Source: a virus
Length of the DNA stretch: 64,000 nt
Virus genome (UHGV): UHGV-0242533
Strand: one strand, 5' to 3'
Shown: one piece after another, positions 3,511 through 47,510 of the stretch
Numbering within the stretch: position 1 is the stretch's first letter
How the letters are laid out: every line of letters starts with the position of its first letter
The notes under the pieces: model-generated
Seen by the model: the letters and a program-made list of their open reading frames with translations, nothing else
Database searches by the model: none
Told to the model about the DNA's origin: nothing
Translations under genes and position numbers: made by a program

Positions 3511-4596
3511 TTAATCTACGAGGAATTTGAATGCGTCTTCGTGACTAACGCGACCCTCTGCGAATGCCTTGGCAACCTTAGCGTTGTCGGGCTTATTGGA
3601 AGTACGAGACTTTGCAGCATCAGACTTCACAACCTTGCGTGGAGCACCGGGACGTTTAATCTTAGCCATCACCTGTTGTTTACCTTTATCAAATTGGTAT
3701 GCTTTATGGAGAGCTAGGAAAATAGACGGACGGTTTTCCTTCAATACTTCTTCTTCAGTAGCACCTAAGTCAATTGCGTATTGCATTAAGTTTTGATATA
3801 AGTTTTCATCCCAATTTGGAATCTCACGTTTCAGAATATTAACACATTCAATGCTCTTGGCTTGGAAAGCTTCCTGCTCTTTAGCTGCTGCTTCCTGCTT
3901 AATACGGATTTGAGCCTGTTCAAGCTGTTGACGGCGAGCTGTGTACTTCTCTAGGAAACGTTTGTTTTCAACATACGCTTGAGGATCTTCTACTGCAAGC
4001 TTGTCCCAATCAAAACCGTTGTAATCTTCAATTACTCGATCTGCTTCTAAAGACGCTAATTCTAATACATCCTTCAAACCTACTACACGTTCCTCAAATG
4101 CTTCCATATGACGCTGAAGAGTTGATTCTCGTTCTGTCATATCAGCACCAGTAAGATAGCCATTAGAAAGTTCTTCAATAGTCATCTCACGTCCATCAGG
4201 AAGGGTGATAACGGTTTCGTAGTCTACATCAAAGACTTCACCTTCACCGTCAGCAGAATCATCTTCATATCCTGCATCGCTTGAGTCTTCCTCATCTGCT
4301 TCAGAGCTTTCGTCTGATTCATCAAATTCTTCCTCATCTTGTTCGACTTCGCCTTCCTCAGTATGATCTTCCCAACCATCTTCATCTTCGAACTTAAGCT
4401 CATTGCTTTCACCGAGAAGGTCGGTATCAAAGTCGAAATCGTCACCGTCTTTTTCCGGGAACTCATCGTCAATGTCCACTTCTGGTTCTTGTTCAGATTC
4501 TAATCGACCGAGTTCTTCTTTGAAAGAACCTTTCAGGTCATCTAGTTGGAGGAAAGATTTAAAATCGTTCGGGTCAATATAATTATCTTGTGGCAT
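3511..4596 (-). CDS. Scaffolding protein (361 aa)
   Basis: Highly acidic central region (D/E runs) with coiled-coil-like C-terminal half; located between portal and capsid genes. Confidence 0.6.
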   Translation of the reverse strand: MPQDNYIDPNDFKSFLQLDDLKGSFKEELGRLESEQEPEVDIDDEFPEKDGDDFDFDTDLLGESNELKFEDEDGWEDHTEEGEVEQDEEEFDESDESSEADEEDSSDAGYEDDSADGEGEVFDVDYETVITLPDGREMTIEELSNGYLTGADMTERESTLQRHMEAFEERVVGLKDVLELASLEADRVIEDYNGFDWDKLAVEDPQAYVENKRFLEKYTARRQQLEQAQIRIKQEAAAKEQEAFQAKSIECVNILKREIPNWDENLYQNLMQYAIDLGATEEEVLKENRPSIFLALHKAYQFDKGKQQVMAKIKRPGAPRKVVKSDAAKSRTSNKPDNAKVAKAFAEGRVSHEDAFKFLVD

Positions 4597-9982: not shown

Positions 9983-10229
9983 TTGTATCTCCCTTGCTGT
10001 AATCTTTGTATGTTTCTACTTTGTAAGTGCGGAATGCTCTGAAGAAGAGCCAACCTAAGCTACTCACATCAATTGTGATATCGAAATCTGTATCATCATC
10101 TAAATCAACAAGACGACCTAAGCATGTAGCTTCCATCCCTTCTTCAGAGTCACTGTTGACTACGAAAGCGTATGTCTCAGTTCTGAACCGAGGCACCAAC
10201 TCTGATAAAAAGTCTAATACTAAATTCAT
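9975..10229 (-). CDS. Hypothetical protein (84 aa)
   Basis: ORF track; first gene of the minus-strand operon. Confidence 0.4.
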   Translation of the reverse strand: MNLVLDFLSELVPRFRTETYAFVVNSDSEEGMEATCLGRLVDLDDDTDFDITIDVSSLGWLFFRAFRTYKVETYKDYSKGDTNE

Positions 10230-10248
10230 AATTCTTCTCCTCTGAATA

Positions 10249-10392
10249 AAAGTATAAAGGGCACATCATAAGATCAACCCGTAAAGGCCACGTCATACCA
10301 ACAACCCGTGTACGCTGAAGTAAAGGGCATGTCATAAAGGGGACTTCATGTTAAGGCACCCTCACATTAAGGCCATGTCATTAGTCATACTT
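10249..10392. repeat. Array of about six degenerate direct repeats (AAAGGSCAYRTCAT-like)
   Basis: Read directly from the sequence: aaagggcacatcat, aaaggccacgtcat, aaagggcatgtcat, gggacttcatgt, aaggcaccctcacatt, aaggccatgtcat. Confidence 0.5.
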
Positions 10393-38002: not shown

Positions 38003-39373
38003 ATGATTGTTATCCCGATTAACCGAATTGAAGATAAGGTTGCTCAACAACCTGATATTGCTGTTGGTCGTCACTTCATTGAACAGTTGATTAACAACAA
38101 CTTGGTTCCAGACGGTATCTGTCCCATCATTACTGGTGGGGCTGTTCGAGATGCTGTGCTTAATAACACAGCTCCACATGACATTGATATCTTTATTGTC
38201 AGAGGACAAACACCAAGAACTCAAAACACATTCATCCCAACTGATCGTTGGCAAGCTCTTGGAAGAGAGATTGAAAGTAATGTGAAGGAATGGCTAGAGT
38301 CACAAGATATCGAATATGCATCCCTTCTTGCTGAAGCTACAAACGAATCCTATGCTGGGGGTTCTCAATTAACATTCACTGATATTATTGAGTTTCAGTG
38401 GAATGGAACCCGCATTCAATTCATGTTTAATTATCCTACTTCTATTGAAGAGGTATTGGATAATTTTCCTATGATGTGCCGTGGTGCGATAACTCTTGAC
38501 AGCTTATTCATGACCCCTCATGGATATTTAGCTATGACCGCTCCTTGCCCTGTGGTTGTTTCTAGTCGTGAAATCAGATACGTTCACAAGAAGTGGCCTA
38601 ATTCACAGGTATTAAGATTCTCCGCTCCATCTGTTGCATATCAATATATGGCACAAACTCGATACCTTCCTACACCTCAACCAGTTAGTCATCTGGTCAA
38701 CGAACGAGGTCAGGTTGCTCCTGTTGAGGATACAACAAGTGCTCAATATTGTGTTAACCGAGACATGAGTCGATTCTTTGGAATCCCTTACGAAGAAATT
38801 CAGTTAATGTCAAGTGTTCATGGCTCTGGTCAGATTCGTGCGTATTGGTCTGAAGGGTTGACGAATTTAACAACTAATACAGGAGGGGATCTCCTTGGTC
38901 GAGAAGAGGAACCTAACCGACACAATGCAATTGAAGGGGTGTTTGTAGCCCCTGCAATGCGTCGAGCACAAGAGTCACGAAGAGTAAGCCCTACTCGTAG
39001 AACATCTTTTGAAGAGGCTCTTGGTGTTACTAGCGATTCATTTGAGCAGTGGTTGTCTAGACGTTCTAATGGTCTGTCAAATGGTTTGACTGCTAGCCGT
39101 CACCAGTTCTCTGGTCAGGGTTTTGCTGTTGGTGATATTGACCAAGCTGCTCGTGTTATATGGACTGATGAAGCATCTGCTCAAGATGTGGTTAATAATC
39201 TCGCCGATCTTGATATTCCTTCTCATGGCGAGCTAGCTGAGACTGTCAGTCGTAGTCTCGCTGATCGCTTTGTTGCTGATAACCCTGAAGTATTAGAGCC
39301 TCAAACCAATACAATTAGTGTTGCTGACGTAGTTGGTGATGGATTCTCTTTTTACGCACGAACAAATAACTAA
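38003..39373 (+). CDS. Nucleotidyltransferase of the CCA-adding / poly(A) polymerase family (456 aa); internal ATG chosen
   Basis: N-terminal GGAVRDAVL...HDIDIFIV matches the GGxVRD...DxD head-domain signature. Confidence 0.5.
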   Translation: MIVIPINRIEDKVAQQPDIAVGRHFIEQLINNNLVPDGICPIITGGAVRDAVLNNTAPHDIDIFIVRGQTPRTQNTFIPTDRWQALGREIESNVKEWLESQDIEYASLLAEATNESYAGGSQLTFTDIIEFQWNGTRIQFMFNYPTSIEEVLDNFPMMCRGAITLDSLFMTPHGYLAMTAPCPVVVSSREIRYVHKKWPNSQVLRFSAPSVAYQYMAQTRYLPTPQPVSHLVNERGQVAPVEDTTSAQYCVNRDMSRFFGIPYEEIQLMSSVHGSGQIRAYWSEGLTNLTTNTGGDLLGREEEPNRHNAIEGVFVAPAMRRAQESRRVSPTRRTSFEEALGVTSDSFEQWLSRRSNGLSNGLTASRHQFSGQGFAVGDIDQAARVIWTDEASAQDVVNNLADLDIPSHGELAETVSRSLADRFVADNPEVLEPQTNTISVADVVGDGFSFYARTNN

Positions 39374-39382
39374 GGAATAAGA

Positions 39383-39916
39383 ATGAGTTTACTAGGAAGT
39401 GTTGAACTGCATGATGTAATTGACAATGGCTATCTGGATGCGGAGCATAAGTATGTTAACGCTGCTAGTGTGGATATCCGTATTGGTGATACTATCCTTG
39501 TTGAAGAACAGGCTGATGGCATCGTTGATATTGATGCGAAAGAGAATCTTCAGTGGAAGGAAGTAAAGATTCCTGAAGAGGGTTTGGTTATCACTCCGGG
39601 TCAGTTCTTCTTGGCTCACTCTATGGAAGAGTTTAATCTTCCAGATAACATCTCAAGTCTGTTTGTCCTGCGTTCGTCTATGGCTCGTTGTGGTTTGAAC
39701 CACCTTCACGCCGGTTGGGCAGATGCAGGATTTAATAGCAGTAAGCTGACATTTGAATTCCATAACGTAACCAAGCACCACAGTTTACGAGTTCGTGCTG
39801 GTATGCGTGTAGGTCAGATGGTAATGTTTGAGCACTCTCATGCAGGGGAACACTCCTATGCAGTGAAGGGTCGTTATAATAACTCTGAAGGTGTAGTTGC
39901 ATCTAAAGGTGTGTAA
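39383..39916 (+). CDS. dCTP deaminase / dUTPase superfamily protein
   Basis: ASVDIRIG and GWADAGFN motifs; 177 aa. Confidence 0.65.
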   Translation: MSLLGSVELHDVIDNGYLDAEHKYVNAASVDIRIGDTILVEEQADGIVDIDAKENLQWKEVKIPEEGLVITPGQFFLAHSMEEFNLPDNISSLFVLRSSMARCGLNHLHAGWADAGFNSSKLTFEFHNVTKHHSLRVRAGMRVGQMVMFEHSHAGEHSYAVKGRYNNSEGVVASKGV

Positions 39917-40114
39917 ATGAAAAAATGGATTGTTCGTGTACATGATAACACGACTGGAGAGTTAGTAGCTGTAGATTTTGTTAAGACTCGAGAGCACGCA
40001 CGTAGAGTCAAAAATCAATACAAGTCTACTTTTAGACTTAACAAGGTTACATTAGGAAGGGCTATTGTGAATAGCGAAGGTGCTTTTATTGCCAACAGTA
40101 AGGTTTATTATTAA
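39917..40114 (+). CDS. Small basic protein, paralog 1 of 3
   Basis: 65 aa; shares TREHAR/TRQQAR/TRKEAR and C-terminal KV-YY with the next two ORFs. Confidence 0.5.
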   Translation: MKKWIVRVHDNTTGELVAVDFVKTREHARRVKNQYKSTFRLNKVTLGRAIVNSEGAFIANSKVYY

Positions 40115-40323
40115 TGAGACCGATCACTATGAGACAATTTTGGTTAGCAAAGATCAAGTGGGCATCAGGTGGCATGACTATGACTGCACTACCCACTCGC
40201 CAACAAGCTCGAGATTTTAAAAAGACTATGCTTACTGGTGACGTGGTCAATAGTATCAGTATCCATAAGGCCAAGGAGTATTCTTCTGGTCGTATTTATA
40301 TCAGCGGAAAGGTGCATTACTAA
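40114..40323 (+). CDS. Small basic protein, paralog 2 of 3
   Basis: 69 aa; tandem paralog. Confidence 0.5.
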   Translation: MRPITMRQFWLAKIKWASGGMTMTALPTRQQARDFKKTMLTGDVVNSISIHKAKEYSSGRIYISGKVHY

Positions 40324-40532
40324 TGAAAAAGATGTGGGCTATTCGTGTTGTCTGGGAACAGAAACAACACTTAGGTAAAGATAATATCAAACTGTTTAAC
40401 ACTCGCAAAGAGGCTCGTGTCGCTAAAAAGAATATGAAAGCTCTAATAGGAACTGTTAAAAGTGCTGACATTCATCGCTGGTATGAAGACCCTAGCTCGG
40501 GTTCTTTTATGTCTAAAGTAATTTATTACTGA
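40323..40532 (+). CDS. Small basic protein, paralog 3 of 3
   Basis: 69 aa; tandem paralog. Confidence 0.5.
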   Translation: MKKMWAIRVVWEQKQHLGKDNIKLFNTRKEARVAKKNMKALIGTVKSADIHRWYEDPSSGSFMSKVIYY

Positions 40533-40558
40533 TTGGTAGTAGATATGGTAACTCTCAA

Positions 40559-40567
40559 ATGTATATA
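40559..40567 (+). promoter_or_regulatory. Near-match to TAATGTATA element (AAATGTATA)
   Basis: About 40 nt upstream of the 40605 start. Confidence 0.3.
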
Positions 40568-40604
40568 GAGTACAATAAGAATTTGTATTTTACAGGAGAG
40601 AGTT

Positions 40605-40934
40605 ATGTTAGATTTGAGTAAAGTGGCCCCGCCCACTGAAGAGATTACAAAATCCAAGGTGATGCAACAGTTTTATCATCGTGATATGCTTGGTCGCTTT
40701 ATCAAGAATCGTGATGTTGTTGCTTGGTCTATTGGTAATCAGGGATATCTGTTGAAGGTTCTTCAGGTTACAGGTTCAACTGCTAAGCGAGTTAAGGTGT
40801 ATGACCCTGAAATGGGGCGTTCTAAGTCAGTAGACCCACAGAACTGCATCGTAATTACCCAGCAGGTAATGGATAATATTGCACGTAACGTTGCTAACTC
40901 AGTTGAACTTGATGGAGAAAACCCAAATGCATAA
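40605..40934 (+). CDS. Hypothetical protein (109 aa)
   Basis: ORF track; RBS ggagagag. Confidence 0.5.
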   Translation: MLDLSKVAPPTEEITKSKVMQQFYHRDMLGRFIKNRDVVAWSIGNQGYLLKVLQVTGSTAKRVKVYDPEMGRSKSVDPQNCIVITQQVMDNIARNVANSVELDGENPNA

Positions 40935-41490
40935 GAATGTTTTTGATTTACCTGATATTGGTCGTTCAGAATATAACATGTTAGACCGGTCTGAGCTTTC
41001 AATCTCTCGCCTTGAAACAATGCAGGGTATGATTAGTGGAAACAGCCTAGAACACATCCTGAGCTGCTTGCAAGCTAACATGGAACTCTTGCATATCAAA
41101 GCTAAAAACTACCACTGGAACGTCTCTGGTGCAGGATTTCAGGGTGTTCATGGTATGTTTGACGAGCTGGAAGATTACGCACGACAGGTAGGAGATCGTA
41201 TTGCTGAACGTATGCGTTACCACTGTGTTAAAGTGGACGCTACAGCAGCTAACTACCTCTCTCATGCTTGGTTCTCAGAGGGTAACGCTGATCTAGACAT
41301 GGACGGTATGCTCTCTGATATGTGCATGACCTTGATGTGTATTATTGAGAAGATGGATGAGTTTGATGGCGATTTAGCCACTTACCCTGTCGATCAGAGT
41401 ATGCTTCAAGAAATTAATGAAGGTCTTGGCAAGTATTGCTACTTCGTCAAGAGCAACATGTCCCATTCAAGTGGTGACGTGTCTTACTAA
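40927..41490 (+). CDS. Dps / ferritin-like protein (187 aa; internal ATG chosen)
   Basis: LQANMELLHIKAKNYHWNVSGAGFQGVHGMFDELEDYARQVGDRIAERM parallels the Dps helix A/B signature (YHWNV.G..F..LH..F.E.Y...D.IAER). Confidence 0.55.
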   Translation: MHKNVFDLPDIGRSEYNMLDRSELSISRLETMQGMISGNSLEHILSCLQANMELLHIKAKNYHWNVSGAGFQGVHGMFDELEDYARQVGDRIAERMRYHCVKVDATAANYLSHAWFSEGNADLDMDGMLSDMCMTLMCIIEKMDEFDGDLATYPVDQSMLQEINEGLGKYCYFVKSNMSHSSGDVSY

Positions 41491-41550
41491 AACCTCCGCC
41501 CTGTCTCCTAACCCGAGGTGGGGCGAACTTATTTATAAGGATATAGATAT

Positions 41551-41730
41551 ATGTTATCAGCAATCGTATGGGGTATTTGGGCTATCTTTATCGGTGGTGG
41601 TATTTATTGGGCTTCTGGTAAGCTTATTGAAGAAACTCCTGATAAGAAAGGTGAGATTCAAACAGCATCAACCATCATGGTTATCGTAGCTGTTGTTATC
41701 CCGTTCCTGCTTCACCTCCTGACTGCATAA
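41551..41730 (+). CDS. Small membrane protein (59 aa; below cutoff)
   Basis: Two hydrophobic helices; ATG with RBS region. Confidence 0.35.
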   Translation: MLSAIVWGIWAIFIGGGIYWASGKLIEETPDKKGEIQTASTIMVIVAVVIPFLLHLLTA

Positions 41731-41738
41731 GGATTTAC

Positions 41739-42014
41739 ATGTCTAAAGTAATTAAGTTTTATAGTGATCAGTGTGCTCCATGTAAAGCAATGGCTCCTAC
41801 CTTTGAGAAGGTTGTTAAGGAGTTTGATGTAGAAGTGGAAGAGATTAACATCCTTGAAGGTGATGGTCGTGAACAAGCTGTTAAGTATGGTGTACGAAGC
41901 ATCCCTGCTTTCGTTGTGCCTGACCGTAACAGTGGTGCACACTACAGCCTCTCTGGTATGCAGACTGAAGCAAACCTGAAAGCATTTTTGGACACAGCCC
42001 TGAGCAATAAGTAA
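41739..42014 (+). CDS. Thioredoxin/glutaredoxin-fold protein (CxxC)
   Basis: CAPC active-site-like motif near N-terminus, SIPAFV cis-Pro-loop-like motif; 91 aa. Confidence 0.55.
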   Translation: MSKVIKFYSDQCAPCKAMAPTFEKVVKEFDVEVEEINILEGDGREQAVKYGVRSIPAFVVPDRNSGAHYSLSGMQTEANLKAFLDTALSNK

Positions 42015-42029
42015 TAAGGATATTCACGG

Positions 42030-42686
42030 ATGAATGAACAACTACAAGCAACATTAATCGAAGCTATGGGAAGCGATCGTAGCGTAGTAAACGCAGCTCG
42101 AGTTTCCTTTGGCGTAACCCGTGAAGGTGATTTAAATGAACGTGATGAACGTCTCATCAACTTCCTCGCAAGAGAGAAGCATGTTACCCCATTCCGACAT
42201 CCGCAAGTCAGTTTCCGATGCAAAGCACCTATCGCAATTGCGAGACAGTTGGGCAAGCATCAGGTTGGATTCTCGTGGAACGAAATGTCCCGGCGGTATA
42301 AAGATGGAGAAGTTGAAGTCTTCATCCCTAAAGAGATTTTTGCGAGACCTTCGGACCTCCATGCAGGTTCAGGGACACAGCTCATCGACGGAGAACGAGC
42401 TGAAGCATTAATGTTGATTAACGATGCATATGAAGCTTCTCTAGCAGCATATGACAAGTTGATTGAGTTTATTGCACCAGAGCAAGCTCGATTTGTTCTT
42501 CCTCAGGGAATGATTACTGAGTGGGTGTGGACTGGTTCTTTGTATGGATGGTTTGAGTTGTGCCGTCAACGACTCTCCTCTCATGCTCAGTATGAAGTTC
42601 GAGTGTTTGCTAAATCCTTAGATGAAGAAATGGCTAAACTCTACCCAATCTCATGGGCAGCTCTGAAGAAAACCTTGGAGAATTAA
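42030..42686 (+). CDS. thyX: ThyX-family flavin-dependent thymidylate synthase-like protein with variant motif
   Basis: F-RHPQVSF...KHQVGFSWNEMSRRY aligns with the ThyX RHR...S.SQ.S.RY region; the canonical RHR is KHQ here. Confidence 0.6.
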   Translation: MNEQLQATLIEAMGSDRSVVNAARVSFGVTREGDLNERDERLINFLAREKHVTPFRHPQVSFRCKAPIAIARQLGKHQVGFSWNEMSRRYKDGEVEVFIPKEIFARPSDLHAGSGTQLIDGERAEALMLINDAYEASLAAYDKLIEFIAPEQARFVLPQGMITEWVWTGSLYGWFELCRQRLSSHAQYEVRVFAKSLDEEMAKLYPISWAALKKTLEN

Positions 42687-42831
42687 TATTGGAAGAAGAT
42701 GATGATGTGTTCTGCACTAAATGTGGGATGACAGTTGAGGATGCATATGACCCAAGTGTAGAAATTTGTCCATGTTGCGGAGTATGTGAATATTGCTGTT
42801 CCAACAACTCAGAGGATTAGCAGGAGAAAGA

Positions 42832-43017
42832 ATGGATAAGAAAGTGTGCAGCTTCTGTAAGAAAGAGAAGCCTATCGCCAACTTTAAGTTTAATCCTGTA
42901 ACCGGTTTGACTCATGTCATGTGTCACTCTTGCAGGATATACCTTGAAACAAAGCACACCATTAACAGGTTGCACTATTATCACCCAACAACATTCAAAT
43001 TTAAGGTTGTGAAATGA
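42832..43017 (+). CDS. Small zinc-ribbon protein (internal ATG with AGGAG SD)
   Basis: CSFC...CHSC. Confidence 0.4.
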   Translation: MDKKVCSFCKKEKPIANFKFNPVTGLTHVMCHSCRIYLETKHTINRLHYYHPTTFKFKVVK

Positions 43018-43343
43018 TTGACAGTAATACATTTAGGACTTCAAATGGAAGTGAGATAAGTCCCGCTGAAGTAATTAATCGGCACAGAAGGCAATTGATC
43101 ATCCATTCCTATTTGTATTACTGGTTGGATGACCCTATCTGGTCTGACGATAAATGGCAACAAGTTGCTAATGACCTAGTGGAGCTGCAAGCCCTGTATC
43201 CAGAGCCTACTGGAGTCTTTGACAATGAATTCAAAGATTGGGATGGTTCTACAGGGATGCACTTCCCACACAATGAGGCTGTTGCTTGTATGGCGACAGC
43301 TGTTTACAGGATTCATAAAGATATGAACCATGAAGTGCTCTAG
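43014..43343 (+). CDS. Hypothetical protein (109 aa)
   Basis: ORF track. Confidence 0.45.
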   Translation: MIDSNTFRTSNGSEISPAEVINRHRRQLIIHSYLYYWLDDPIWSDDKWQQVANDLVELQALYPEPTGVFDNEFKDWDGSTGMHFPHNEAVACMATAVYRIHKDMNHEVL

Positions 43344-43515
43344 ATGTGAAGGAACAAACCTTCATTTAAGTAACAAGGTTATCAGAGAGCTTGCCAAAGG
43401 CTCTCCAACCAAAGGGAAGAACAAACGATTTACTAACGTCAGGGTTTATACAGCAATCTGTAAAGACTGCTTAACCACTGAGTGTCATTACGAAGAAATT
43501 GGAGAGCGTAAATGA
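43330..43515 (+). CDS. Small zinc-ribbon protein (61 aa)
   Basis: CSRC...CKDC. Confidence 0.4.
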   Translation: MKCSRCEGTNLHLSNKVIRELAKGSPTKGKNKRFTNVRVYTAICKDCLTTECHYEEIGERK

Positions 43516-44249
43516 GTCGTCGTCAATCACGGAAAGAATCACGGAAAGACCTTCGTCGGGAAGCACTTGTTACTCGTAAGGGTAAGCGAGAGTATGAAGA
43601 GGTGGTTTTAGCAAAGCCTGTAGTCCCTCAGAACCAGTTTCAGTCTGAGCTACTCAATGCTATTAAGACTAAACAAGTTGTGTTCACAGACGCTCCTGCG
43701 GGCTGTGGTAAGACCTTTGTAATCACTTCCACGGTTATCGATGCACTGAAGAGTGGTAAGATTCAGAAGATCATCCTGAGTCGACCTTCAGTTGGCATGG
43801 GTAACTCTCTTGGGTTACTTCCGGGAGGAATGCGTGAGAAGTTTGAACCATACCTGATGCCTATCATTGATGTTATTACTCAGCGATACGGTAAGGGATT
43901 CTATGAATGCCAAATCGGAAATGGTAACATTGAATTTGTACCTCTGGAATATCTCCGTGGTCGCTCTTTCAATGATGCCATTGTTATCGTAGATGAGTTC
44001 CAGAACACAACTAAGGATGAAGCCTTCTCCATCATGACTCGATTGGGAGAAACCTCTCAATTGTTCTGTATGGGTGATACAAACCAGCATGATATGCGTG
44101 GTCGCGAGAGTGGTCTAACTTGGGCTACTAACTTTATTGATGAACACGATCTGTATGAGTTTGCTGAGATTGTAGATGGTGAATCAGATGATATTGTTCG
44201 TTCTGGTTTCTGTAAGGCGATTGTTAAAGCAATGGAAAAGAAAGCTTAA
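43512..44249 (+). CDS. phoH: PhoH-like ATPase
   Basis: Walker A APAGCGKT, then ILSRP..., Walker B IVIVDEFQN. Confidence 0.75.
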   Translation: MSRRQSRKESRKDLRREALVTRKGKREYEEVVLAKPVVPQNQFQSELLNAIKTKQVVFTDAPAGCGKTFVITSTVIDALKSGKIQKIILSRPSVGMGNSLGLLPGGMREKFEPYLMPIIDVITQRYGKGFYECQIGNGNIEFVPLEYLRGRSFNDAIVIVDEFQNTTKDEAFSIMTRLGETSQLFCMGDTNQHDMRGRESGLTWATNFIDEHDLYEFAEIVDGESDDIVRSGFCKAIVKAMEKKA

Positions 44250-44260
44250 ACAGTAACTTA

Positions 44261-44269
44261 TAATGTATA
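44261..44269 (+). promoter_or_regulatory. TAATGTATA promoter-like element
   Basis: Exact 9-mer about 37 nt upstream of the 44306 start. Confidence 0.4.
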
Positions 44270-44305
44270 CTCCTTAGTGTACACTGATATATTAAGGAGT
44301 TCTAA

Positions 44306-44623
44306 ATGGCAGACCATGTAGGAAAGAGAGATTATGCACAAGAAAGACGTACCGCAATTGCCCGTGGTGAAACAGGCGTTGGGAGCAAGAGCGGAGATGC
44401 TCAGCGCCACCGTGCACGTCGCATCGTTGAAAAGCGCGATGGAAAAGCTGCTGTCAGAGGTAAAGACGTTGGACACAAACGAGCTGTCAAGTCTGGAGGC
44501 TCTAATGCGTCAAGCAACTTACGTGTTGAATCAGTCAGCTCAAACCGTTCAAACGGCGGCAAAAGTGGTGATCGAGCTGGAAAAGCAGCTGGAGCACGCA
44601 AAGGGGCTTTAAGCTCATCGTAA
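44306..44623 (+). CDS. Basic Arg/Gly/Lys-rich protein (105 aa)
   Basis: Strong SD aaggag 7 nt upstream; chosen over the overlapping ORF 44334..44612. Confidence 0.45.
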   Translation: MADHVGKRDYAQERRTAIARGETGVGSKSGDAQRHRARRIVEKRDGKAAVRGKDVGHKRAVKSGGSNASSNLRVESVSSNRSNGGKSGDRAGKAAGARKGALSSS

Positions 44624-44627
44624 TATG

Positions 44628-44660
44628 AGGCTACCCAAATGGGTGGCCTTTTCTTTTATA
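44628..44660 (+). terminator. Intrinsic terminator
   Basis: aggctaccc-aaat-gggtggcct followed by TTTTCTTTT. Confidence 0.65.
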
Positions 44661-44691
44661 TAAACCAAAATAAACTTCTTAGGTAATAAAT

Positions 44692-44946
44692 ATGTCTATT
44701 GTAAAAATCGTAAATATTTTTGATGTAACCAGAGATGGCAAGATTGTTAAGTGGACTTTCACTAACCACCACAACAAATCAAACAAGATCATCGAACGGA
44801 TGATTGAGATTAACCCAAAAACAGCTCGCACTAACGTACTCCTTCGCGGAGCTGATGGAAAATTTATCTCTTATAAGAATAAGAACGTAGAAAAATCTTT
44901 CCGTGTTGCAGTAGAAAATCTCATCCCATTCCCTAAAGGAGTTTAA
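44692..44946 (+). CDS. Small protein, tandem paralog A (84 aa)
   Basis: Shares KTARTNV(L/M)LR...GKFISY...PFP(K/R)G with the next ORF. Confidence 0.5.
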   Translation: MSIVKIVNIFDVTRDGKIVKWTFTNHHNKSNKIIERMIEINPKTARTNVLLRGADGKFISYKNKNVEKSFRVAVENLIPFPKGV

Positions 44947-44947
44947 T

Positions 44948-45232
44948 ATGAATAAGTTAGCTATGGTTCAAATTCGGGACACATACACTAACCGCCCGGA
45001 GCAGAAACCGCGTACTTGGTCTTATCTGTTGGCTGAAAGTAAGACTATTGACAAATACGCTGTAGGGATTGATACTATTCCAACTAGTGTCACATTACTC
45101 CCTCACAAAACAGCCAGAACTAATGTGATGTTACGTGATAGCAAAGGTAAGTTTATCTCTTATCGTGATTCAAGAATCAATAATGAAATTAAATCTGCTG
45201 TGGAATTTTTGATGCCATTCCCAAGAGGTTGA
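44948..45232 (+). CDS. Small protein, tandem paralog B (94 aa)
   Basis: As above. Confidence 0.5.
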   Translation: MNKLAMVQIRDTYTNRPEQKPRTWSYLLAESKTIDKYAVGIDTIPTSVTLLPHKTARTNVMLRDSKGKFISYRDSRINNEIKSAVEFLMPFPRG

Positions 45233-45235
45233 GTT

Positions 45236-45649
45236 ATGCCATTACCAGCTAGACACCAAAACCGTTTCCTAGTTCTAAAGTGGGATGATATTGAAATGAA
45301 TCTCACTGAGCACGAACTAGATTTGTTCCATGAATTATTATCAGAGATTCGCTCTGGTATTCCTGAACGTCAGTATGTTGTTATCAGTGATAAACACCCT
45401 CAAGAGTTTGAAGAAGCTTGGGGCATGAAGCTGGCCTACATTCAGAGAGCTATTAGAGAAAGAGAAGAAGTTGCTAATCAGAGGGTTGTGGCCCATCTGG
45501 TACGAGAGCAGCCTCGTGGGGTTAGGTCTTCTTATTCTCCATCTACTTGGGCACAAACAAATGCAGCAATGAGATCATATGCTGTTGATTCCACATCATT
45601 GGATGTAGTAGAAGATAACCAAGCATTTACAGATTTACTTTACCAATAA
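45236..45649 (+). CDS. Hypothetical protein (137 aa)
   Basis: ORF track. Confidence 0.5.
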   Translation: MPLPARHQNRFLVLKWDDIEMNLTEHELDLFHELLSEIRSGIPERQYVVISDKHPQEFEEAWGMKLAYIQRAIREREEVANQRVVAHLVREQPRGVRSSYSPSTWAQTNAAMRSYAVDSTSLDVVEDNQAFTDLLYQ

Positions 45650-45665
45650 TTTAAAGGAGTATAAA

Positions 45666-47510
45666 GTGAGCAACCCGGACGCTCTTCCATTTTTGACAGA
45701 GATGACTGTCGCTGATATAATCTCTAAGCAAGCAAAGCACGGAGTGAGTTTCAACCGAAGAAATGCTCGGTGGTATGTTCACCTCCTTAAAGAGATTATT
45801 GTTAATATTGACAGAGAGTTGATTCCTCTCTTACCTAAGATGAGATTAGATGGCTCTACTTACATGAAGCCGTTTAAGAAGTCTGGAGCTTTACAGAAGT
45901 GGCCTCAAGCCTATTGTGATAGGGTTGGGCTGAAGAGAGAAGATATTGGTGGAGCTTTCACCTGTGTCGAATACGTAGACTTTGACCCATCGAAAGATGC
46001 ACGAGTTAAAGAAGCTCTTATGGATGAGGGCTTTCTTCCTCCAGAGTTTAACGTATCTAAGAAGCCTTGGAATACTTTCGAAATTAAGAAAGATATGAGA
46101 AAGTATGGAACATACCAAGCATGGTATACTGCTTGGATGCGAGGTAATGCTAAGCAAAAACAGACAGCCGAGATGGTTGACGCTGATATTAAGAAGTTCT
46201 TAGAAAAGCATTTCAGGTTTAAGACTAAGAATTACATGAAGGCTTACGTATTTGGTTTGGGGTTGAACCCTAATCGCCGTAATCCTGTAACGTTTGATGA
46301 GATTAAGAAAGCACTAGCCACATCAAACAAGTGGCCTACAGCTCCTACAAACCTCGAGGAGACTCTTGAAGAAGGGTTAGGGGGTGAGCTAGGGAGTGTC
46401 GGAAGTTTGCTTAAGAAACGCGTTGTAGCGGCTCACAGGCTAGGTCTTATCAGTGGACTCATAGCAAAGGAGCGCGAAGATGGTAAACTTTCGGCAGAAG
46501 CTAACAGCTGCGCTACGCCGACTTTTCGATTCAAACATCGTATCGTGGTTAATATTCCCTCCCGTGGTCTGTTTGGTCACGAGTGTCGCAGTTTGTTTGA
46601 GTCTGACTATAACTCAGACAGTGATCACTCTCGTCCTTTCGTTATTACTAACGTTGTTCCTGATGGTTGTTATATACGAAAGGGTACTAACGTAATTTAC
46701 GAGAAAGGTAAGCCGGGGAAGAAAGACAAACCTGTAGGTGCTTACAAATATTACATACCCGCTGGTAAAGAAGTATTCTTAGGGTATGATGGTTCTGGAC
46801 TTGAACTTCGTATGCTCGCTCACTACCTCATCAAAGAGTGTAGAGATATGCTTGCTGAAGCAATCGAAGAGAACAATCCAGCTAAGAAAGCTCTGGCAGA
46901 ACGCGGTCTAGCTTCTGCTATTATGTATCGTGATATTCTCCTTGAAGGTGATATCCACTCCCACAACCAGAAACTTGCTGGTCTTCCTACTCGTGACAAT
47001 GCTAAGACATTTATCTATGCATTCAACTACGGTGCTGGTGATGCTAAGCTTGGTTCAATTGTAGGTGGTGGGGCTGACGAAGGTTCAGTGATGCGAGCAC
47101 GTTTCTTAGCAGAGAACCCATGTATTGCAATCCTCATTGATCGCATGACAGAGAAAGCTGCTCAAGGATACTTGATTGGTGTTGATGGTCGTAAGATTAC
47201 AATGAGACGAGATGCCACTGGTAAAGTTATGGTTCATAAAGCCCTTAATACACTCCTGCAATGTGCTGGTGCTGTTGTTATGAAATATGCTATGATGTTC
47301 CTTAACAAGTGGATTGAGAAGGATGGGGTTCGTTGTGCTAAGGTAATTGATATGCACGATGAAGGCCAGTTCTCAGTGAATCGTAATGATGTACAGAAAC
47401 TCAAAGAGCACACTGAGCTTTGTGTTAAGAAGGCTGGTGAGTACTTGAACATGGAATGTCCTCTGGCTTCTGATTGTCAGATTGGATTAAATTGGATGCA
47501 TACGCACTAA
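45666..47510 (+). CDS. Family A (T7-like) DNA polymerase, polymerase domain only (614 aa)
   Basis: Motif A GYDGSGLELRMLAHY, motif B-like RDNAKTFIYAFNYGAG, motif C VIDMHDEGQF; no exonuclease motifs in this ORF. Confidence 0.8.
   Translation: MSNPDALPFLTEMTVADIISKQAKHGVSFNRRNARWYVHLLKEIIVNIDRELIPLLPKMRLDGSTYMKPFKKSGALQKWPQAYCDRVGLKREDIGGAFTCVEYVDFDPSKDARVKEALMDEGFLPPEFNVSKKPWNTFEIKKDMRKYGTYQAWYTAWMRGNAKQKQTAEMVDADIKKFLEKHFRFKTKNYMKAYVFGLGLNPNRRNPVTFDEIKKALATSNKWPTAPTNLEETLEEGLGGELGSVGSLLKKRVVAAHRLGLISGLIAKEREDGKLSAEANSCATPTFRFKHRIVVNIPSRGLFGHECRSLFESDYNSDSDHSRPFVITNVVPDGCYIRKGTNVIYEKGKPGKKDKPVGAYKYYIPAGKEVFLGYDGSGLELRMLAHYLIKECRDMLAEAIEENNPAKKALAERGLASAIMYRDILLEGDIHSHNQKLAGLPTRDNAKTFIYAFNYGAGDAKLGSIVGGGADEGSVMRARFLAENPCIAILIDRMTEKAAQGYLIGVDGRKITMRRDATGKVMVHKALNTLLQCAGAVVMKYAMMFLNKWIEKDGVRCAKVIDMHDEGQFSVNRNDVQKLKEHTELCVKKAGEYLNMECPLASDCQIGLNWMHTH

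Follow-up and report, generated by a model that had tools for sequence, protein, structure and literature searches.

Two strings of short open reading frames (ORFs) lie between positions 39,917 and 45,232 of the viral genome UHGV-0242533, and they raise the question of whether the members of each string are true paralogs, how old they are and what their products might do. We analysed one strand, 5' to 3', of a stretch of 64,000 nucleotides, which is referred to here as the window. An earlier note, made from the sequence alone, had described three back-to-back ORFs (set A: A1, A2 and A3) and two contiguous ORFs (set B: B1 and B2) in it as products of recent duplication. We consider it almost certain that the two sets are real gene families and that each goes back to tandem duplication, as the sequence comparisons below indicate, and that these duplications are old. 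For the function of the proteins, we tentatively suggest that they bind a polyanion without being enzymes.

Paralogy within set A and within set B

The region 39383-45700 matches 99 phage records. The top matches are the Escherichia phages Bas91, EK5, KM01 and SU10, which are about 95-96% identical over the full length, and phiEco32 is 94.7% identical. Because of this close identity, the window is assigned to a phiEco32-like podophage (Kuravirus, Gordonclarkvirinae), i.e. a coliphage. In phiEco32, the counterparts of set A are gp71, gp70 and gp69 and those of set B are gp57 and gp56; annotated relatives label all of them "hypothetical protein". The genes of the two sets, with lengths in amino acids (aa) and isoelectric points (pI) of their products, are as follows.

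39917..40114, plus strand: A1, 65 aa, pI 10.3; ortholog of phiEco32 gp71; family A (phrog_4939); absent from Suseptimavirus and phage LAMP
40114..40323, plus strand: A2, 69 aa, pI 10.4; ortholog of phiEco32 gp70; start overlaps the A1 stop (TAATG); sole A copy in phage LAMP
40323..40532, plus strand: A3, 69 aa, pI 10.1; ortholog of phiEco32 gp69; start overlaps the A2 stop (TAATG)
44692..44946, plus strand: B1, 84 aa, pI 10.3; ortholog of phiEco32 gp57; family B (phrog_6814)
44948..45232, plus strand: B2, 94 aa, pI 10.0; ortholog of phiEco32 gp56; one base from B1 (TAAtATG); missing in EP335, Bas89 and LAMP

Each of the five ORFs is the longest at its coordinates (65, 69, 69, 84 and 94 aa), and positions, lengths and motifs are all as the earlier note had given them. 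Set A carries TREHAR, TRQQAR or TRKEAR and the C-termini KVYY, KVHY or KVIYY, while set B carries KTARTNV(L/M)LR..GKFISY..PFP(K/R)G. The note had called set A basic, and this description holds for all five proteins (pI 10.0-10.4, net charge +7 to +9). Of two start candidates for A2, the ATG at 40114 is the one that overlaps the stop of A1; the other is M6 (40129; 64 aa), which A2 may use given that some of its orthologs start with MK(K/R)FW.

In Smith-Waterman alignments against 1000 shuffles, A1-A2 (z 7.5), A2-A3 (z 9.6) and B1-B2 (z 23) stood out, and A1-A3 was weak and not significant (z 2.0). Separate ortholog alignments for each gene, drawn from 186 homologues, were then compared by hhalign. 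This gave a probability of 86% for A1-A2 (E 5e-6), 93% for A1-A3 (E 4e-7, over all 65 residues), 96% for A2-A3 (E 1e-9) and 99.3% for B1-B2 (E 1e-20, over 83 residues). Thus, the profile comparison on which the earlier note had made its claim depend returned significant similarity within both sets (E 5e-6 to 1e-20), with control comparisons of A against B below 1%, and tandem duplication as the source of each set is supported. The assignment of A1, A2 and A3 over their full length to phrog_4939 (E 7.8e-27, residues 1-65 of 65; 9.2e-28; 8.2e-27) and of B1 and B2, likewise over their full length, to phrog_6814 (E 3.7e-36 and 9.4e-37) agrees independently with the paralogy. Similarly, the AlphaFold model of B1 and the BFVD model of a B2 ortholog can be superposed with a template modelling (TM) score of 0.79.

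The orthologs are under purifying selection, with a pooled ratio of nonsynonymous to synonymous polymorphism (pN/pS) of 0.41-0.48 in saturated pairs and a ratio of nonsynonymous to synonymous substitution rates (dN/dS) of 0.06-0.31 in close pairs, which argues that A and B are real genes. The idea that the similarity reflects chance or composition, or that the ORFs are not genes, could draw on the weak A1-A3 alignment (z 2.0) and on the fact that the proteins are short and rich in lysine and arginine. We give it practically no credence, given the profile-profile E-values of 4e-7 to 1e-20 with negative controls below 1%, the evident purifying selection, the confident AlphaFold models and the retention of the genes in about 96-99 phage records.

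Sets A and B are unrelated to each other. Three hhalign controls between ortholog-group profiles of A and B each gave a probability below 1%. A distant kinship had been considered because both have the order beta-beta-alpha-beta-beta; it was ruled out by an hhalign probability of 0.2%, with the ortholog groups below 1%.

Age of the duplications

The part of the earlier note that does not stand is the word "recent". Amino-acid identity is 22-30% between paralogs of family A and 37-39% between those of family B, where the C-terminal 41 residues reach 56%. At the DNA level, paralogs align only in short stretches that encode the motifs, and even these contain synonymous differences (CGC vs AGA for the same Arg). 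The corresponding regions of 11 annotated relatives and of several metagenomic contigs were retrieved, and hidden Markov models (HMMs) of the two families were run against all of their ORFs. A1, A2, A3, B1 and B2 form separate ortholog groups across Kuravirus, Nieuwekanaalvirus and Suseptimavirus. Family A members group by position and not by genome. There are four such groups: A1; A2, to which the first Suseptimavirus copy and the lone A gene of phage LAMP belong; A3, with the second Suseptimavirus copy; and a fourth. Members of the fourth group are located 3' of the thioredoxin gene of KBNP1711, ECBP2 and EK010 (10067-10276 in region L007, 4253-4468 in L011 and 4042-4257 in L012, respectively) and are absent from the window, where thyX follows directly 3' of the thioredoxin gene. 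L012 also holds a separate weak family A member at 3822-4034 (E 1e-4).

In the divergent metagenomic phiEco32-like phages L013, L014/L015 and L024, three tandem A genes directly follow the dCTP deaminase gene (dcd). The ortholog groups that span three genera, together with these arrays, indicate that the duplications predate the diversification of the phage group. Copy number varies from one to three tandem A genes, with up to four per genome, and from one to two B genes. Most Escherichia phages carry family B as a pair; EP335, Bas89 and LAMP have a single B1-type gene, and a single B gene is also found in the 82-90 kb lineage (L003, L016, L017) and in L026. In L024, there is again a B pair, the copies being 46% identical to each other, and the B duplication is possibly recurrent. 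In other words, the duplications are old and extra copies can be lost.

The view that the copies are recent and largely redundant duplicates has in its favor that the genes are adjacent, similar in length and share motifs. With identities of 22-39%, DNA likeness confined to motif codons and position-specific ortholog groups that extend over three genera and metagenomic relatives, we regard it as very improbable. Rather, the copies have diverged into distinct ortholog groups and are not redundant duplicates of recent date. Tandem arrays of small accessory paralogs are familiar in lytic phage genomes, and sets A and B resemble them in being adjacent, short, translationally coupled ORFs without known function whose copy number varies between related phages. 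They differ from them in that the copies are anciently diverged, each forming its own ortholog group, and in that the A array is fixed 3' of dcd across very divergent lineages.

Divergence and exchange of alleles

A and B are less conserved than the genes around them. Between the window and phiEco32, amino-acid identity is 95% for A1, 87% for A2, 77% for A3, 66% for B1 and 90% for B2; for their neighbours, it is 98% (dcd), 100% (gp68), 100% (thioredoxin), 99% (ThyX), 98% (PhoH), 100% (gp58) and 98% (gp54). The synonymous rate (dS) is 0.5-0.8 for A2, A3, B1 and B2 vs 0-0.25 in the neighbours, and dN/dS is 0.08-0.31 vs 0-0.06. The genes are also discordant with one another. For instance, A3 of the window differs from that of Bas91 and phiEco32, which are separated by a single amino-acid change, while B1 of the window is almost identical to that of Bas91 (dS 0.02) and it is phiEco32 that differs. 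A high dS combined with discordance between genes is the signature of an exchange of divergent alleles by recombination, and we suggest that old divergent alleles have been exchanged in this way. Purifying selection appears to persist, although relaxed relative to the neighbours; positive selection acting in place was not demonstrated by dN/dS comparisons among the window, Bas91 and phiEco32.

Divergence is uneven along B1: the N-terminal 42 residues have a nonsynonymous rate (dN) of 0.44 vs 0.07 in the remainder, so that B1 combines a hypervariable N-terminal half with a C-terminal one that is nearly invariant. In some A3 alleles, the C-terminal hairpin is like that of A2 (e.g. ..SGDRGSYISGDVYY vs ..SSGRIYISGKVHY), which may reflect exchange between paralogs. 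Based on variable copy number among relatives and the exchanged alleles, both sets appear to be accessory genes. The gp54-like gene next to set B (45236-45649) also diverges locally, with dN 0.093 and dS 0.37 against Bas91 vs 98% identity to phiEco32; therefore, mosaic exchange of alleles reaches beyond the two paralog sets.

Distribution and database matches

Families A and B are restricted to phiEco32-like phages. An exhaustive HMMER profile search of 1.84 billion representative proteins gave 22 clusters for family A at E<=1e-3, all of 65-79 aa. Word-indexed searches of 5.8 billion proteins gave 93 clusters for A and 93 for B, the latter rising to 121 with a more diverse profile, and the homologues found in this way come mostly from contigs of about 50-100 kb or from short fragments. 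Domain fusions, sought among these homologues as a hint to function, were not found; the homologues have 48-87 aa (A) and 62-107 aa (B) and carry neither a Pfam domain nor an informative name. By tblastn against 50,697 phage records, A3 was found in 96 records (among them MT836236, from a human fecal sample, at a non-significant E of 0.3) and B1 in 99. The significant matches are all Escherichia or Shigella phages of the Gordonclarkvirinae subfamily or unnamed phages, and neither A3 nor B1 matched Salmonella phage 7-11 or Cronobacter phage GAP52 in this search. Among the 69 core genes reported for the phiEco32 subgroup are phi32_56, 57, 69 and 70, and phi32_71 is not among them (PMC8948821, Suppl. 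Table S2).

Scans of all five proteins with Pfam, NCBIfam and PADLOC gave nothing significant, and Pfam scans of 26 diverse members of family A and 14 of family B likewise had no significant or consistent match. No relative emerged when PDB sequences were searched with profiles (lowest E 0.11 with A, 0.052 with B), and an Rfam scan of 39000-46000 had no match. The literature that we searched, which does not include the primary phiEco32 papers, contains no study of these genes. Two existing groupings describe them in part: phrog_4939 is the same family as A1-A3 and has no assigned function, and the position-specific and fourth groups and the metagenomic relatives are absent from its description; phrog_6814 is the same family as B1 and B2, again lacking functional annotation, and its description does not include the pattern of a variable N-terminal and an invariant C-terminal half.

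Several more specific identities were considered and rejected. B1 orthologs are labelled "autotransporter adhesin" in several GenBank/RefSeq records (H71, H73, H80, H93, H100); there is no Pfam or NCBIfam match to back this label, and the model is that of a soluble-looking alpha/beta protein of 84 aa. A gene in the paralog region of record PQ863256 (H28) is labelled "Cas8 protein", and this label is equally unsupported: against the PADLOC model typeIV_Cas8, B2 reached only E 0.029 and 12.3 bits over 61 positions of the 213-position model. In family A, the pattern W-x-V-x-V ... F-x-T-R-x-E-A-R hinted at DNA-binding modules of the AP2/integrase Arm-type or DUF2188-like kind, built of a beta-sheet plus a helix, a lead that we rejected. 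The likeness is superficial and limited to the motif, i.e. an N-terminal beta-hairpin with a Trp followed by a helix that starts T-R/K-x-E-A. No Pfam family reached E<=1 with A1-A3, the 26 members gave no consistent match, and neither the three-stranded sheet packed by a C-terminal helix of that fold nor likeness to its solved members was found. The small phage inhibitors T4 Dmd (PDB 5hy3_B), AcrIIC3 (6je4_I) and phi29 p56 (2le2_A) were taken as the nearest comparison; for a Dmd-like antitoxin, neither sequence likeness nor a clear likeness in fold was found. Inhibitors of uracil-DNA-glycosylase (UDG) have an acidic surface that mimics DNA. The neighbouring dcd had suggested an inhibitor or DNA mimic of this kind (phi29 p56, PBS2 Ugi), an idea that was rejected because the five proteins are basic; no likeness in fold to such inhibitors was found either, and the phage encodes ThyX. 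This idea had been prompted in part by the suggestion of dU-DNA, i.e. DNA containing deoxyuridine (PMC11990801).

Gene organisation and expression signals

Set A lies in the order dCTP deaminase, A genes, gp68, Dps-like protein, thioredoxin and ThyX, and set B in the order PhoH, gp58, B genes, gp54 and DNA polymerase. The features that flank the two sets are as follows.

39383..39916, plus strand: dCTP deaminase gene (dcd), annotated as such in Bas91 and phiEco32; its stop abuts the first A gene (TAA, then ATG)
40557..40567, plus strand: predicted middle/late promoter element of the gp36 sigma factor, AAATGTATATA, which matches tAATGTAtA; in the gap of 72 nucleotides (nt) after A3
44306..44623, plus strand: gp58-like gene, 105 aa, pI 11.5; conserved next to and upstream of family B in all lineages examined
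44627..44650, plus strand: hairpin resembling an intrinsic terminator, with a GC-rich stem of 10 bp and then a U-tract; between gp58 and B1

The A genes appear to form a translationally coupled string behind dcd. The junction from dcd to the first A gene is kept in all lineages examined except Bas89, which has an HNH insert, and KBNP1711 and ECBP2, which have a small ORF not matched by the family A HMM. A1 and A2, as well as A2 and A3, overlap by one base, and TAATG or TGATG is found at every A-to-A junction in every lineage examined. At these junctions, a Shine-Dalgarno-like (SD-like) sequence, (A/G)AGGT, lies 8-12 nt upstream and is built from the conserved C-terminal K/E-V codons; the one exception is A1 of phiEco32, which ends in K-I (aagatt). 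The last A copy retains K-V with codons that do not make an SD sequence (aaa gta), which suggests an additional constraint on the motif in the protein itself.

Similarly, the B genes appear to be a coupled pair between the terminator-like hairpin and gp54/DNA polymerase. B1 and B2 are joined by TAAtATG with AAAGGAG within the P-K-G codons, and between B2 and gp54 there is AGAGGT within the P-R-G codons. The hairpin at 44627-44650 has a predicted RNA folding energy of -18.7 kcal/mol (z -3.3), and a terminator is annotated at the matching place in phage SU7. The adjacency of gp58 and B is found in all lineages; in L003 and L016, no more than one or two small acidic ORFs come between them.

The gap after A3 contains an exact AATGTATATA at 40558-40567; the gp36 promoter consensus tAATGTAtA is taken from PMC8948821 and PMC4281155. 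The predicted element suggests that set A ends its transcription unit, and we suggest that this unit would comprise genes for a primase-helicase, a polymerase exonuclease subunit, a nucleotidyltransferase, dcd and the A genes. The SU10 paper places the block containing set A in the "early" class; this differs from PMC8948821, which describes nucleotide-metabolism genes, even gp79, as middle.

Predicted structures and conserved residues

The AlphaFold2 model of A3, made from an alignment of 55 family A sequences, has a predicted local distance difference test (pLDDT) score of 87.8 and a predicted TM score (pTM) of 0.71, with the topology beta(2-11) beta(21-25) alpha(28-39) beta(45-56) beta(60-63). 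That of B1, from 63 family B sequences, has a pLDDT of 85.5 and a pTM of 0.76 with a tail of low confidence, and the topology beta(6-12) beta(18-24) alpha(30-39) beta(49-52) beta(58-59) alpha(68-75). No convincing structural relative of either model was found in the PDB or among viral structures. Across 26 diverse members of family A, W5, R28, A31 and R32 are invariant and T27, K35 and the C-terminal Tyr nearly so. In the predicted helix, R28, R32, K35, K36 and K39 would face away from the hydrophobic A31, A34 and M38, with their exposure deduced from periodicity and the predicted helix limits. The invariant residues of family B cluster in the hairpin and the tail (R46, T47, R52, G56, F58, S60, L77, P79, F80 and P81). 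A and B are lineage-restricted, small (7-11 kDa), strongly basic alpha/beta proteins of the replication/nucleotide-metabolism arm.

A tentative model for function

We tentatively favor a model in which the A and B proteins are not enzymes and bind a polyanion, most likely nucleic acid. In this model, they would act as stoichiometric binders of a polyanionic ligand. In family A, the ligand would be bound by the invariant stripe of Arg and Lys on the solvent-facing side of the single helix (T-R-x-x-A-R-x-x-K-K), and in family B by the invariant basic beta-hairpin (T-A-R-T-N-V-x-L-R-x-x-x-G-K-F) together with the conserved L-x-P-F-P tail. Properties specific to a paralog or an allele would be set by the variable parts, which in A are the loop between beta1 and beta2 and the C-terminal hairpin, and in B the N-terminal half. 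A binder is suggested because the proteins, whose confident models (69 and 84 aa) have a single domain, are too small and featureless for an enzyme and match no catalytic family, and a polyanion because of the strongly basic character of all five and of their distant homologues. The conservation of Arg/Lys-rich residues over all paralogs and lineages points to a common type of ligand. Nucleic acid is suggested because both sets are embedded in, and would be co-expressed with, genes for DNA replication and nucleotide metabolism.

The main alternative is that the proteins are host-takeover or counter-defence factors that bind host proteins, with paralogs and swapped alleles tracking host targets that differ or vary. 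The turnover of alleles and the dispensability of copies, as well as the reported resistance of Gordonclarkvirinae to defence systems (PMC11990801), are accommodated better by such factors. They fit less well with a conserved basic surface common to the copies and with the position of the genes in the genome, and we consider them only slightly less likely than binders of a polyanion. We find it improbable that A1-A3, and likewise B1 and B2, are subunits of a hetero-oligomeric complex whose equimolar synthesis is ensured by translational coupling. One-base stop/start overlaps between copies are strictly conserved even in very divergent lineages, the three-copy arrangement recurs in distant phages and each copy is a distinct ortholog group, all of which such a complex would explain. 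However, stop/start overlaps are common throughout these compact genomes, LAMP retains only A2 and only B1, Suseptimavirus lacks A1, and EP335 and Bas89 lack B2; genomes with single copies imply that no fixed stoichiometric set is required. A more daring extension of nucleic-acid binding is that the A array, and perhaps the B pair, encodes unrecognised small basic DNA-associated proteins that help Gordonclarkvirinae to resist restriction-modification or other defences. Such proteins would coat or mark replicating phage DNA or block a defence that senses nucleic acid; in that case, an arms race with host immunity would underlie the swapped alleles and the varying number of copies. We regard this as a long shot.

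The importance of these findings is modest. Five "hypothetical proteins" become two defined families with a signature, a confident model, a distribution and an evolutionary behaviour, and within a replication module that is otherwise very conserved, A and B diverge fastest and are shuffled by recombination. The phage group is used therapeutically and its resistance to bacterial defences is unexplained. Together with their fast divergence, this makes A and B reasonable, if not compelling, candidates for knock-out and binding experiments. An array locked to dcd across very divergent phages, folds without a close solved relative and mosaic alleles are further points of mild interest.

Observations on neighbouring genes

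The gp58-like gene upstream of set B is rich in Gly, Ser, Lys and Arg and is overlapped by an ORF in the +1 frame (44334-44612, plus strand), a frame that is open for 96-102 codons in five divergent lineages. Because substitutions concentrate at the third positions of the gp58 frame, gp58 is the selected frame, and a scarcity of codons with T at position 2 probably explains the open +1 frame. By eye, gp58 has an HNH-like pattern, D-x-(G/D)-H ... S-G-G-S-N ... N-L ... N-R, for which the only support is a PHROG HNH match at E 0.067.

In the 82-90 kb metagenomic lineage, a family of small acidic proteins ending in ...GYNIEM lies between gp58 and the single B gene. It forms a tandem pair in L003 (4030-4314 and 4317-4532), a further local tandem duplication at this place, and is also found in L016 (5663-5944). 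In Bas89, HNH-annotated genes separate dcd from A1 and gp58 from B1 (L008, 2284-2793 and 7447-7941), and Bas86 has one before gp58 (L009, 7158-7538). The insert before B1 in EK010 (L012, 7351-7845), in the same slot as the HNH gene of Bas89, is annotated "baseplate subunit". The junctions beside the paralog blocks look like insertion hot spots.

Downstream of set B, a perfect sigma-70 consensus (TTGACA, 17 nt, TATAAT, with an upstream TG) lies at 45693-45721 on the plus strand within the first 20 codons of the DNA polymerase ORF (45666-47510), and is the sole 12/12 match in a 7-kb scan. It may be an internal promoter or a by-product of the conserved coding sequence for E-M-x-V-A-D-I-I. Finally, the Dps/ferritin-like gene downstream of set A (40927-41490 region) is annotated "DNA-binding protein", "integrase" or "ferric iron binding protein" in different records, of which the label "integrase" looks spurious.

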